From: Candidatus Saccharimonadales bacterium
GTDB taxonomy: Bacteria > Patescibacteriota > Saccharimonadia > Saccharimonadales > UBA10212
Reading direction: 5' to 3'
DNA length: 25,723 bases
NCBI GenBank assembly: GCA_040900005.1
Contig: JBBDZV010000040.1
Location: 1 to 25,723, forward strand
Part shown: one piece after another, positions 2,414-6,551 of the stretch
Layout of the letters: each line of letters starts with the position of its first letter
Position numbering within the stretch: position 1 is the stretch's first letter
Notes under the pieces: model-generated
Told to the model about the DNA's origin: nothing
Databases searched by the model: none
What the model saw: the letters and a program-made list of their open reading frames with translations, nothing else
Made by a program: the position numbers and the translations under genes

Positions 2414-2474
2414 ATTCTCACGGTTTTCTCTAGAAATTCCCCCACCACCCTAGACTGACCCTCACAAATTTGAT

Positions 2475-2500
2475 TTAATTTGTGCTATAGCATAAATTAA
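2475..2500. repeat. 26-bp near-perfect palindrome upstream of the PaaX-like gene
   Basis: TTAATTTGTGCTA|TAGCATAAATTAA, one mismatch; ends 4 nt before ATG 2505. A second inverted repeat overlaps it (CACAAATT 2463-2470 / AATTTGTG 2477-2484). Confidence 0.9.
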
Positions 2501-2504
2501 TTAC

Positions 2505-3083
2505 ATGGCGCGTAATAGTAATACTTCTGCTCTGGTAGACGGTTTGCTGCGTTTTGTAGCGACAGGTGGTATGGTGACAGCTTCCCTGCTGTTGCCAGGC
2601 TTGGCGATTGGTCTTAATAAGCCACTTAGCAAATTCTTAGATGGGCTAGATGAGGCTGCTAAGCGTCGGGAGATAGACCGTACGCTTAAATATATGAAGG
2701 CAGCAAAGCTTATTAATTACTCCGGAAAGTACGAGCATGGTATTGCTATTACCGGTAAGGGCCGGAAAAGGCTTGAGAAAGTACATTTTGAAGATATAGC
2801 TATCCTGACGCCCAAACAGTGGGATCAAAGATGGCGGCTGGTTATCTTTGATGTGCCAGAGGAGCACAAGCAAGCAAGAAACGCGCTTTCACGTAAACTT
2901 CGCGAATTAGGCTTTCAGCCCCTGCAAAGAAGTGTTTGGGTCCATCCCTTTGCTTGTCACGCCGAAATAGAAGCAATTTCTATTTTTTGGGGGCTTACAA
3001 ACTACTTAACCTACGTGGAAACCAGCTATATAGATAAACCCGACTTATTAAAATCTCGCTTTGCTAATATCTTAAAGTTCTAA
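2505..3083 (+). CDS. PaaX-like protein (wHTH plus Cas2-like central domain), CPR type
   Basis: wHTH-like region ending ITGKGRKRL, then WDQRWRLVIFDVPEE...RKLRELGFQPLQRSVWVHP, the PaaX central/Cas2-like signature. Confidence 0.85.
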   Translation: MARNSNTSALVDGLLRFVATGGMVTASLLLPGLAIGLNKPLSKFLDGLDEAAKRREIDRTLKYMKAAKLINYSGKYEHGIAITGKGRKRLEKVHFEDIAILTPKQWDQRWRLVIFDVPEEHKQARNALSRKLRELGFQPLQRSVWVHPFACHAEIEAISIFWGLTNYLTYVETSYIDKPDLLKSRFANILKF

Positions 3084-3114
3084 CTATTTTATGCTATAGC
3101 ATAAAATAGTTAGA
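3079..3114. repeat. 36-bp perfect palindrome overlapping the PaaX-like stop codon
   Basis: TCTAACTATTTTATGCTA|TAGCATAAAATAGTTAGA; its core TTTATGCTATAGCATAAA (3088-3105) matches 2479-2496 at 17/18 positions. Confidence 0.95.
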
Positions 3115-3160
3115 GTTTGTTTATTTTGTGTTGCGGGGGGAGTAGAATACGGATATTGAT

Positions 3161-3766
3161 ATGAAGAGGTTTAAAGTCCCTTCCTCAATCTGGTATAGAC
3201 AACATAAAGTGCTGTCGTTGGTCATAGCCGTGGTGCTGATAGGGATAGTTTTTTGGGGGTATCAGGCCTATAGCGGCTATACCAATAAAAAAAGTTTTGA
3301 GAAGGCTCTGGCGGCGATAGATATTGTTTATGCAGATATAGTGTCTGAAGTTGGCCCGCCCGATAACTATAAGCATACTAACGACTGCAGCCGACCGAGT
3401 GGGGTTTACGAAGACGGTCCCCTCTCCTGCTCCGTTAGCACCTCTTTTATATATGGTGTCGCGAATCGCACCGAAGCCAATAATCTGCTTAAGAAGATCC
3501 AAACTGTTATCGGAGAGCACCAGGATTTATTGAAGCCAACCCAAGCTCTTGCCGCCACTATTGAGGATACTCTGGTGGTAAACACTTATCACCACTCGGC
3601 ACTTGATAGCTACACACGCGGTGGTTCTATGGATTGTTATACTAGCTACTTTTACGATACCTTTGAAGAAATAGACTTAACTATATCTTCAAAGGTAAAA
3701 AAACCTTTCCAAATAAATCTTGGATGCTCTGATTTTGCTAACAAGGAGTATTACCCCATCCATTAA
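3161..3766 (+). CDS. Hypothetical membrane-anchored surface protein
   Basis: 201-aa ORF; one N-terminal hydrophobic helix (VLSLVIAVVLIGIVFWGY) and four Cys in the extracytoplasmic part. Confidence 0.75.
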   Translation: MKRFKVPSSIWYRQHKVLSLVIAVVLIGIVFWGYQAYSGYTNKKSFEKALAAIDIVYADIVSEVGPPDNYKHTNDCSRPSGVYEDGPLSCSVSTSFIYGVANRTEANNLLKKIQTVIGEHQDLLKPTQALAATIEDTLVVNTYHHSALDSYTRGGSMDCYTSYFYDTFEEIDLTISSKVKKPFQINLGCSDFANKEYYPIH

Positions 3767-3827: not shown

Positions 3828-6551
3828 ATGCATAAGCTTCTTCGGCCGGGTGTGTTTTCTCTGCTCCTACTCAGTGCTAGTTTAATAGTGGCAACTAATG
3901 CTAAATATGCTTATGCCGAAACATCTTTGGAGTGGTTATCCCCGTCCCTCCTTTCTCTTACGAAGTTGAACGAGGTTGCGGTGATACCTCTCTCCGTGAA
4001 CGGCAACATCGACTGTACCCAAAAAGAAACTTCCGAATGTGTAGTCAATGCATTATATGGATCAGTAGCGTCTAACGGTCGAATCAAGCTAAATAATACG
4101 TCTGTTTATAAAACAGTCATTAACTACCTTAATAATTTACCGCGAATACTAGCTATACCGAACTCCAGCAGCATCATAAGCTACAGTACCGAGCCCCCAT
4201 ATGGTTTCTACCTGTACTTTAACAAGAACTTTAACGCTTCTATTAGCCCCTATACGCCCATCGGGAGCACGGAAATGCAATACCAGATTAATCGGCCGCC
4301 TGACGCTAGGCTGGAAGACAGAAATCATAATCGCTTGGCAGCTGACTATAATTCAATGAGTTTCTCTACTGACGGTAAATGGATGGTTGTGTCTCAGCCG
4401 AATGTATCGGTGCTGCGAGTCAATTTGGAAACGTATGAAGTTCTACCGTTTGCACCCGGGTTCAATCACACGATTGGAATAGCTCCTAATCCTAAAACTG
4501 CTATAACCAACGACGGGCGCTACGCCGTGGTTGCCTCTAGAGATTTTGGCCGATTTACTATATACGACCTAAGTACCTGTGCTACCGTTCCAGCTACCAT
4601 AACCGGGTCGGTTACCTGCCAATCTAGAAGTCTTCTGAGTTTTGTACAAACACAGATACCAGGCTATATAACAGCTTCCCGCATTAGATTTATCGATAAC
4701 CAAAGCTTAAGCTTTTACGCTAGCTATAACGATGGGGGCGGCAACAAAATCGCTAAGTTTGTTCTTAAATCAGGTGGAGGAACATTCAACCAAATAGAAT
4801 ATTTAGCTCTGGGGGATTCTTATATTTCCGGGGAGGGTGCATTTAATTATTTAGAAGGGACCGACACGGAGAATAATAAATGCCACCTTTCAACAGCTTC
4901 ATACCCATATCTTATTGGGTACACCCTTAACTATAATTCTTATCGATCTATAGCTTGCTCCGGCTCTAGAGTGTCTGACATTACAGATTCAAGCACCCAC
5001 TATAAAGGGCAAAATATGAATAAAGTAGAGAGACAGAATCTTGGAAGTCCTAAAATTAATGAAATTCTTGAGATGTTTCAGCCTGGCTATATTTATCAAT
5101 TAAATTTTGTCAGCAAATACCTACCCAAAACTGTCACAGTATCAATTGGGGGGAATAATATTGGATTTTCGCAAATTGTAAAGAAATGTATAGCTCCAGA
5201 TACTTGCTTCAGTTCATTCGAAGATCGGCTGGAATTGGTACGTCGGGTTAATCGAACTTTTCCTGACCTAGTGGGTACCTACCAGGAAATTAAAAATGCA
5301 ACTTCTCCGGATGCCAAAGTTTTTGCAGTGGGCTATCCACAGCTTGCCCTACCGGGTGGCAATTGTGCTCTCAATGTACGCTTAGACTCGCAGGAGCTTG
5401 AATTTTCAAAGCAACTAATTTCTTATATGAACTTAGTAATTTCCCGTGCAGCCCAAAAAGCCGGAGTTATATATGTAGACACCGAGGACGCCTTTAGCGG
5501 ACACCTTCTCTGTGAGACCGTGAGCAGTGACGTTGCCGTGAATGGCTTGACGCTTGGTGATGACTTCCCTGATTTCCTGAATGGACCTATTGGTAATGAA
5601 AGCTATCACCCTAACCAGCTGGGGCATCAATTATTAAAACAAAAGATCCTTGCTGCCACCCAGAATTTCACTCAAACCATGCCCACACCGAACTTAGCTA
5701 TAACTTTTCCGCCTGAGTCGGGACTTTCGATCCTGGATTATCCACCTTCGGGACGTGTAGTGCGAAGTTCTATAGATGCTGACCAATTAGTTGACGATGT
5801 GTTAATCAAAGGAGTCGCCACTACTTTAACCATAGATAACCCTGCTTACCCTTTGAAGCCCTCTAGTGTTTTTGAGGCTGTTCTGCATTCTGACCCAATA
5901 AATATAGGCTCCTATACCTCATCCTCTGCTGGAACCTTGAGTTTCCAATTTCAGATTCCAGACAGCGTTTCACCGGGATTCCACGACCTTCATTTGTATG
6001 GCCAGAATATGTCCGGCGAGCAAATCGATATATATAAAACAGTCTATGTGGGCGCCAGCAGTGACGACCTTGACGGCGATGGAATATTGAATAGCTTTGA
6101 TACCTGCAACGGTATCGTTCCGTCAGGCGTGGACTACGATCAGGATGATATTGATGATGCTTGTGACGGTCTTATCGGTGAGGCTCCTCCGCCCCCCTCC
6201 GATCCAGACCCACCGCCGCCTATTCCCGACCCTTCCTCTTCCAGCCCTGAAGATGATGAGCCCTCACCGCCAAACTCTTCGCCAGACAGGTTGGATAATT
6301 CCCACTCAGACGAGATTCCAGTCGGGTCTATTACACAAACTAATAACCAGAATGACTCGGCATTCATTAACACTTTTATTCATTTAAGACTTCCCCGGGA
6401 TTCTGATAAGCAACTTAGGAGTAGTGTACTTTCCGTACAAAACAGCAAAGGGACTGTAAAAGACTCCTCCTTCGGCTTTCCAATGAAAGCAGGGGTTACC
6501 CTAGCAGCTATAGTTACGGCTCTTGTTGCAAGAGCTGTGGTGCGGCGTTGA
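3828..6551 (+). CDS. Large surface protein with an SGNH/GDSL hydrolase (SEST-like esterase/lipase) domain
   Basis: Signal peptide; YLALGDSYISGEG (block I), IACSGS (II), VSIGGNNIGF (III), ESYHPNQLGH (V); Asp-rich DxDGDG repeats, Pro-rich linker, C-terminal hydrophobic anchor ending RR; GAGG before the ATG. Confidence 0.85.
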   Translation: MHKLLRPGVFSLLLLSASLIVATNAKYAYAETSLEWLSPSLLSLTKLNEVAVIPLSVNGNIDCTQKETSECVVNALYGSVASNGRIKLNNTSVYKTVINYLNNLPRILAIPNSSSIISYSTEPPYGFYLYFNKNFNASISPYTPIGSTEMQYQINRPPDARLEDRNHNRLAADYNSMSFSTDGKWMVVSQPNVSVLRVNLETYEVLPFAPGFNHTIGIAPNPKTAITNDGRYAVVASRDFGRFTIYDLSTCATVPATITGSVTCQSRSLLSFVQTQIPGYITASRIRFIDNQSLSFYASYNDGGGNKIAKFVLKSGGGTFNQIEYLALGDSYISGEGAFNYLEGTDTENNKCHLSTASYPYLIGYTLNYNSYRSIACSGSRVSDITDSSTHYKGQNMNKVERQNLGSPKINEILEMFQPGYIYQLNFVSKYLPKTVTVSIGGNNIGFSQIVKKCIAPDTCFSSFEDRLELVRRVNRTFPDLVGTYQEIKNATSPDAKVFAVGYPQLALPGGNCALNVRLDSQELEFSKQLISYMNLVISRAAQKAGVIYVDTEDAFSGHLLCETVSSDVAVNGLTLGDDFPDFLNGPIGNESYHPNQLGHQLLKQKILAATQNFTQTMPTPNLAITFPPESGLSILDYPPSGRVVRSSIDADQLVDDVLIKGVATTLTIDNPAYPLKPSSVFEAVLHSDPINIGSYTSSSAGTLSFQFQIPDSVSPGFHDLHLYGQNMSGEQIDIYKTVYVGASSDDLDGDGILNSFDTCNGIVPSGVDYDQDDIDDACDGLIGEAPPPPSDPDPPPPIPDPSSSSPEDDEPSPPNSSPDRLDNSHSDEIPVGSITQTNNQNDSAFINTFIHLRLPRDSDKQLRSSVLSVQNSKGTVKDSSFGFPMKAGVTLAAIVTALVARAVVRR

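Follow-up and report, generated by a model that had tools for sequence, protein, structure and literature searches.

Why should the gene of a small PaaX-like protein be enclosed between two copies of nearly the same palindrome? The question is raised by a 25,723-nucleotide (nt) contig of a Candidatus Saccharimonadales bacterium (JBBDZV010000040.1), the whole of which is referred to here as the window. The assembly to which it belongs, labelled G000, comprises 552 kb in 110 contigs, is 78% complete and has a G+C content of 49%. Gene regulation in the Patescibacteria (also called the Candidate Phyla Radiation, or CPR) is almost unknown, and very few recognisable regulators are encoded by these organisms. 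Within the window, positions 2505-3083 of the + strand encode a protein of 192 amino acids (aa; 579 nt), called mini-PaaX below, with one palindrome just before its start codon and another across its stop codon. The reading that we favour from the sequence, with a probability of roughly 0.6, is that mini-PaaX would be a PaaX-like autorepressor with one operator located on the leaderless promoter of its own gene and another copy of it in a terminator hairpin, the whole making up a self-contained unit. Such a design, in which one operator stands at both the 5' and the 3' ends of the regulator's own gene, is unusual. To our knowledge, a site on both sides of the regulator gene has not been described for PaaX, and literature searches on PaaX-like proteins in CPR and on Cas2-like PaaX found no description of this layout.

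The upstream palindrome, O1, is a putative operator of 26 bp at 2475-2500 (no strand assigned), recognised by direct reading and by a repeat search. Its 13-nt arms, TTAATTTGTGCTA and TAGCATAAATTAA, are complementary except for a single G:T mismatch at 2482/2493. O1 ends 4 nt before the ATG at 2505, so that it spans -30 to -5 relative to this codon, and its centre lies 17.5 nt before it. The downstream palindrome, O2 (3079-3114, again without strand), is both a putative operator and a terminator-like hairpin; its 36 bp, composed of TCTAACTATTTTATGCTA and TAGCATAAAATAGTTAGA, are 100% complementary, contain the TAA stop codon (3081-3083) and carry TAAAAT hexamers in both directions. Common to O1 and O2 is the 18-mer TTTRTGCTATAGCATAAA, which a repeat search and a genome-wide site search place, without strand, at 2479-2496 as TTTGTGCTATAGCATAAA and at 3088-3105 as TTTATGCTATAGCATAAA, with 17 of the 18 positions identical. 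When the register is kept, the repeat extends to 28 nt with 86% identity, the two copies being 609 bp apart from start to start. This arrangement is not due to chance, the contribution of which is negligible. A preliminary description of this DNA had reported the twin palindromes and their 17/18 core, and both direct reading and the repeat search bear it out. It had also seen the core nowhere else in the window, which is correct (the exact 10-mer TGCTATAGCA occurs there twice), yet one more site is present on another contig: allowing up to 2 mismatches, the 18-mer has three sites in the 552-kb assembly, and the next best matches have 4 mismatches. The third site (C29:5102-5119) lies between the stop codon of ruvA and the start of a 198-aa open reading frame, whose start region it overlaps; this gene has no Pfam family and is found in 4 of 49 related genomes. 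A C-run and a G-run outside the palindromes, which the same description had offered as weak support, are given no weight here, as no convincing inverted or terminal repeat was found.

The same layout recurs with homologues of mini-PaaX. It was studied at 101 non-redundant loci with both flanks, from Saccharibacteria and other Patescibacteria, by comparing 100 nt upstream with ~100 nt downstream. The two flanks of a gene share a word of at least 10 nt at 66 of the 101 loci, compared with 38 of 600 non-cognate flank pairs, and have an identical central hexamer at 61. Palindromes scoring at least 8 are present in 36 of the upstream and 54 of the downstream flanks (versus 7 of 190 control windows). 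Among the cores of the family, GCTATAGC is the one found here and GCGATCGC that of the closest homologue; the remainder are the hybrid GCGATAGC, further sites with CGATCG, CATATG, CGGCCG and CGGTCG. The class of motif follows the protein clades. In particular, the protein tree shows 22 changes of core class, as against 32-36 in the five printed of 200 label shuffles, and by this measure the core is inherited with the protein, yet switches often. Differences are also seen within a single genome: in G024, a groundwater Saccharibacteria metagenome-assembled genome (JACPKF01), four paralogues each have a core unlike that of the others, and have it on both sides of the gene. A search for paired palindromes in homologues, which the preliminary description had proposed, is thus positive. 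Since the paired palindromes differ by paralogue, the comparison argues that each encoded protein reads its own palindrome.

The family is large. Within the taxonomic family of G000, 20 of 49 genomes have homologues, at most five in any one of them; of 301 genomes sampled from the phylum, 78 have PaaX_M genes, with 1-12 copies each. When each prokaryotic species was represented by one genome, a pattern scan with an 8-sequence alignment as the query yielded at least 599 further loci, mostly from Candidatus Saccharibacteria/Saccharimonadales and also from Parcubacteria, Giovannonibacteria, Gottesmanbacteria, Peribacteria, Berkelbacteria and others; the same scan with a single protein as the query found no loci. 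The family amounts to a set of ready-made regulator/site pairs, in which the probable site can be read from the gene's own two flanks at ~60% of the 101 loci, and with which the specificity of binding, the architecture of leaderless promoters and the content of regulons become directly testable.

The nature of the protein was addressed with Pfam, AlphaFold2 and Foldseek. It consists of a predicted PaaX-type winged helix (approximately residues 1-96) and a Cas2-like (PaaX_M) domain (residues 104-178, nt 2814-3038). The second of these matches Pfam PaaX_M (PF20803) with an E-value of 3.7e-22 and 78.6 bits, against a cut-off of 24, while the protein has no Pfam match to the PaaX N-terminal domain. 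The AlphaFold2 model, built from 24 homologues, has a mean pLDDT (predicted local distance difference test) of 81.5, is weakest at residues 23-36, and shows a beta wing after three to four helices and then a beta-alpha-beta-beta-alpha-beta domain. Its top Foldseek matches are E. coli PaaX (PDB 8a39, E 3.6e-5) and Rv0674 of Mycobacterium tuberculosis (PDB 3kfw), after which come many Cas2 structures; the alignment to 8a39 covers 156 columns and so extends beyond the Cas2-like domain alone. A hydrophobic N-terminus is kept across the family, and in the model it would correspond to the first two helices of the winged helix rather than to a membrane anchor. However, the equivalog model of PaaX itself, NCBIfam TIGR02277, gives 28.9 bits versus a cut-off of 264.55, with residues 82-158 alone matching; PaaX_C is not matched, the protein stopping ~14 residues past the Cas2-like domain; the Cas2 models also score below their cut-offs (19.7 versus 23.8 for Pfam, 23.2 versus 24.5 for TIGR01573); PADLOC returns weak Cas2 models only; PHROGs has no match for the protein; and Cas1 was not detected in the 78%-complete genome. 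Since its scores with the PaaX equivalog and Cas2 models are below the curated cut-offs, and since neither PaaX_C nor Cas1 was found, the protein is neither PaaX proper nor Cas2, but a 'mini-PaaX' with a PaaX-like fold.

PaaX of E. coli W is a phenylacetyl-CoA-responsive repressor of the paa genes that binds symmetric sites in their promoters. With PaaX and Rv0674, its best structural matches, mini-PaaX shares the order of a predicted winged helix and a Cas2-like middle domain, and by analogy it is presumed to bind symmetric promoter sites as a repressor; it is this match of the fold to 8a39 and Rv0674 that favours a repressor role. It differs in having 192 aa rather than ~300, in lacking PaaX_C and a paa context, and in having as its site a contiguous palindrome with a GCnATnGC centre. 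The likeness to Cas2 and VapD lies in the ferredoxin-like fold with an aspartate in beta1: Asp116 (codon 2850-2852; FDVPE), which is nearly invariant among the 24 homologues, aligns with the beta1 Asp of Cas2 (YDV in SSO8090). The differences from Cas2 and VapD are the fusion to a predicted winged helix, the scores below cut-off and the failure to find Cas1 in this genome. The question is raised whether the Cas2 fold is a mere dimerisation module here or still acts on nucleic acid.

How could such a protein control its own gene? The right arm of O1 contains TAAATT (2493-2498, + strand), a -10-like hexamer (TANNNT) 6 nt before the ATG, so the symmetric site overlaps the predicted core promoter of the mini-PaaX gene, which would be leaderless. 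This spacing is common in the family: TANNNT is found 4-10 nt before the ATG at 68 of the 101 loci (exactly 6 nt at 34), and a Shine-Dalgarno-like word at only 5. Throughout both G000 and G024, TANNNT peaks at a spacing of 6-9 nt before start codons, and neighbouring genes have the same pattern (for example p378, with TATACT, 8 nt and the ATG). Transcription of mini-PaaX thus probably starts at the ATG itself. The centre of the upstream site is at -17, the mode of the family, in 16 of 61 loci and between -15 and -20 in 33 of them. For a repressor, -17 from the start is a classical place for the centre of the operator, and it is this position, on the predicted promoter, that favours autorepression. 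(The mirror hexamer on the other strand of O1 is CAAATT, owing to the single mismatch; one may speculate that the mismatch makes the promoter one-directional.) As a separate observation, many start codons in G000 and G024 are preceded at 6-9 nt by -10-like hexamers, with few Shine-Dalgarno words, as can be seen at 2396-2432 and 3143-3163 of the window. The pattern suggests that leaderless mRNAs are common in Saccharibacteria of the G000/G024 type; literature searches on leaderless Saccharibacteria promoters found nothing relevant.

The downstream site has a double character. O2 obtained a terminator-like score: its stem has 20 pairs, its loop 4 nt, and the T-rich tail GTTTATTTTG comes next; by direct reading and terminator scoring, the tail GTTTGTTTATTTTGTG follows the hairpin at 3115-3130 on the + strand. 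In the family, the downstream site begins at the stop codon or within ~30 nt of it, and downstream palindromes are longer than upstream ones (Wilcoxon p 4e-4). The palindromes might instead act only in cis as transcript boundaries, the upstream one as a bidirectional promoter or insulator and the downstream one as a hairpin terminator. The encoded protein would then not read them at all; RNA polymerase or another factor would, and duplication or gene conversion would keep the copies alike. Besides the intrinsic-terminator-like score of O2 and the -10-like hexamers in the arms, this explanation draws on related genomes, which have many dispersed palindrome families without a link to mini-PaaX and some CGATCG-centred palindromes that are found only between convergent genes. 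We nevertheless consider it quite unlikely. A T-rich tail follows the palindrome in just 17 of 54 downstream and 12 of 36 upstream flanks, leaving about two thirds with none; the 18-mer is almost confined to the mini-PaaX gene in its genome; and the core differs among the paralogues of one genome, yet matches across the flanks of each gene. The downstream core, moreover, follows the upstream core through all of the specificity switches. A mere hairpin would need no such match with the site at the promoter, and O2 is for this reason read as a second binding site lying within a hairpin that would end the transcript.

A further alternative moves the control to the RNA. The Cas2-like domain, which is RRM-like (RRM, RNA recognition motif), would bind or cut the O2 hairpin in the 3' end of its own mRNA, and perhaps hairpins in others, and thereby set transcript stability. 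O2 would indeed be transcribed if termination occurs at or after it, its stem has 16-20 bp, the Cas2 fold and its Asp are retained, and the greater length of the downstream palindromes would fit as well. However, a leaderless start leaves the upstream copy outside the mRNA, although that copy is conserved and positioned to the nucleotide, and the Cas2-like domain of PaaX, which is the nearest match in structure, belongs to a DNA-binding repressor. We regard control of this kind as highly improbable.

The autorepressor reading joins what is observed (the sequence features, their recurrence and positions in the family, the fold, and a presence/absence polymorphism described below) to what we infer (binding, repression, a leaderless start and termination). 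The 192-aa protein would bind, as a dimer, the palindrome TTTRTGCTATAGCAYAAA. Binding to O1, which lies on the gene's own leaderless promoter and holds the -10 box in its right arm, would shut off the gene. O2, a perfect hairpin from the stop codon onwards, would end the transcript and, as DNA, would offer the protein another anchor, beside the promoter region of the p201 and esterase genes, which follow; the third copy (on C29) lies on the start of a rare gene of no assigned function. Operator, gene and operator-terminator would together constitute a self-contained unit, each paralogue having its own palindrome. The two-operator autoregulatory unit of the preliminary description is thus the reading preferred here, with the upstream site placed on a leaderless promoter, but the looping that went with it gets no support from helical phasing. 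Autoregulation through auxiliary operators and loops is known from lac (O1/O2/O3), gal and deo, with which the unit shares an operator that is present twice, on the promoter and again several hundred bp from it. It departs from them in that the second operator is found at the 3' end of the gene for the regulator itself, where it also serves as a hairpin, and in that helical phasing is absent.

Several points weigh against this reading. Over 61 loci, the O1-O2 distances range from 559 to 741 bp with no helical phasing (Rayleigh p 0.6), which leaves a phase-dependent loop unsupported. The next gene is convergent in many loci, so that the downstream site cannot be the operator of a promoter there. 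Perfect symmetry over 36-48 bp exceeds what a dimer needs and points to selection for a hairpin or to recombination between the arms. Residue-level co-variation of the protein, its recognition helix included, with TATA- versus GATC-centred sites was not shown, there being 5 supported independent pairs, with which no column can reach significance. Finally, a regulator whose sites are its own two flanks and one other is odd, and no regulon is common to mini-PaaX of the window and its closest homologue: the core of the latter, TACGCGATCGCGTA, likewise has three sites in its genome, on both flanks of its own gene and between purF and purN. Some paralogues do have extra sites away from their gene, as expected of a regulator; CAGCGATCGCTG, for example, has 14 sites in G024, as a unit of ~32 bp, and the C29 site of the present core is of this kind as well.

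Insight into the history of the unit comes from its neighbourhood. On one side, pilM (162-1202) lies beyond p378 (1278-2414, - strand; likely true ATG at 2396), which encodes a secreted protein without a Pfam family and has a promoter-like TAGAGA-16-TATACT at 2432-2405. On the other, p201 (3161-3766, + strand) encodes a small membrane protein, has its own -10-like TAGAAT (3143-3148) and is followed by the gene for a 907-aa SGNH/GDSL esterase (3828-6551). This block, in which pilM and p378 are read away from p201 and the esterase gene, is conserved. In G007, G021 and G002, p378 lies directly beside p201 in divergent orientation, the matches being 61-288 nt apart and mini-PaaX absent; the junction appears to hold back-to-back leaderless promoters and lacks TGCTATAGCA. 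In G046, pilM-p378 adjoins the esterase gene, and p201 and mini-PaaX are both absent. Because the unit occurs within this block only in G000, and because its closest homologues (57-61% identity) sit in unrelated contexts, it was most likely gained at the spot between p378 and p201. A second case is the rpe-tkt operon, which in G045 and G024, genomes of different genera, is interrupted by a mini-PaaX unit in antisense orientation (loci L186-L190 correspond to G044-G048, and L033 to G024), while four other species of the genus of G045 have no mini-PaaX between rpe and tkt. Here the cassette is about as diverged as its neighbours (62% versus 77% and 62%), which fits old residence and vertical descent followed by losses. 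A third is the unit next to obg: three genomes have it in antisense and another has it co-directional; an opposite orientation is the expected product of recombination between two identical symmetric ends. Taken together, these comparisons support the idea that the unit has been gained and lost as a whole, and it has probably also been flipped as a whole during the evolution of the Patescibacteria.

Do these movements mean that the gene is a mobile or selfish single-gene cassette, like an insertion sequence (IS) or the repetitive extragenic palindromes (REPs) and their associated transposases (RAYTs), with palindromic ends that are cut or recombined by the encoded winged-helix/Cas2-like protein? 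The left end, by overlapping the promoter, would then bring about autoregulation, as happens with many insertion sequences. The absence from the pilM-p378/p201-esterase block in the four genomes named above and the unrelated contexts of the closest homologues are in line with this idea, and so is the patchiness of the family, with 0-12 copies and the partial distribution already given. Further points in its favour are that the gene often stands alone and antisense between housekeeping genes, that the Cas2-type Asp is nearly invariant, that solo palindromes exist elsewhere, and that one obg-adjacent copy is inverted. The likeness to IS and REP-RAYT elements consists in a gene tightly bracketed by protein-specific symmetric copies, the left one over the promoter, with extra solo intergenic copies, a patchy copy number and empty sites. 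However, only PaaX_M and Cas2-like matches were obtained from Pfam, NCBIfam, PADLOC and PHROGs, with no transposase or recombinase domain of the DDE, HUH, serine or tyrosine type. Reading of the flanks revealed no target-site duplication or flanking direct repeat; identical or near-identical copies were not found within a genome, paralogues being 27-61% identical; and the empty sites, both at p378/p201 and at rpe-tkt, are without a solo palindrome. Several subfamilies, moreover, hold their place across genera, as does the tkt-rpe cassette, which is as diverged as its neighbours. REP-RAYT systems in particular differ in that no Y1/HUH match was found in Pfam and in that three sites in 552 kb contrast with abundant REPs. 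(Metagenome contigs compared with the locus gave no cassette-less form; the contigs break at the palindrome.) We consider such a cassette unlikely. Of the mobile cassette suggested in the preliminary description, gain and loss as a unit is thus supported, the empty sites for which it had called having been found in G007, G021, G002 and G046 and, for rpe-tkt, in four of the five species of one genus; mobilisation by its own protein through hairpin ends is not supported, given the lack of a transposase feature, of target duplication and of recent copies.

Returning to the autorepressor reading, one may ask whether it could extend to a class. Portable cassettes of operator, gene and operator-terminator, each with a private palindrome code, might occur throughout the Patescibacteria as a main route of transcriptional rewiring; as a general statement this is possible but doubtful. 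If it were true, the identical symmetric ends, which are both direct and inverted repeats, would let recombination delete or flip the unit, and insertion between genes or divergent promoters (as at p378-p201 and rpe-tkt) would put the neighbours under the control of the newcomer.

Additional palindromes were noted in the course of this work. Window positions 3074-3111 recur on a short contig from the source sediment metagenome (run X1), between foreign flanks that are absent from the assembly and at a depth close to that of this genome; this contig may represent a fourth site in a part of the genome missing from the assembly, or else one in a relative. The mini-PaaX gene of the window has a single copy in G000, where C65 and C69 carry another two PaaX_M genes, distant ones that are both weak matches to the query. 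It also has a second, intergenic palindrome family, CCACA..TTAC-YCGRYCG-GTAA..TGTGG (C65:14240-14283, C65:9134-9177, C97:2537-2574, C92:12568-12601 and C46:3502-3537), the longest copy of which (44 bp) abuts the start of the paralogue on the minus strand at C65:13744-14250; the third paralogue of the genome is at C69:2476-2889. Other intergenic palindromes of G000, ACTTGAC-NN-GTCAAGT and ACTTAAC-NN-GTTAAGT (C95:8855, C44:2050, C73:365, C11:3364 and C45:399), look like another regulon-type motif, the reader of which is not known.

In G024, two of the CAGCGATCGCTG sites (C2:41096-41250 and C5:44530-44680) lie within an outer inverted repeat, CCTGACTCTCAAAACC, which has 5-7 copies in the genome. 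The idea that the CAGCGATCGCTG sites are parts of larger repeats resembling miniature inverted-repeat transposable elements was rejected, as their similarity is confined to ~32 bp; a seemingly constant distance of ~55 nt from these sites to start codons was also discarded, as the open reading frame starts are unreliable. One mini-PaaX paralogue of this genome is split over two contig ends (C5:57562-58078 and C7:66984-67139), the assembly having broken inside or beside it. G024 (loci L034-L078) also contains dispersed zero-loop palindromes without a link to mini-PaaX, namely ATTCTAATATTCTTAAGAATATTAGAAT and TGTGATAGGTTTAACCTATCACA, with at least 12 and at least 13 copies respectively, as well as TGCTACAAGGATTATCCTTGTAGCA and GTTTACAAGGAGGCTCCTTGTAAAC; palindromes of the form GTCCGATCGGAC occur in this genome only between convergent genes.

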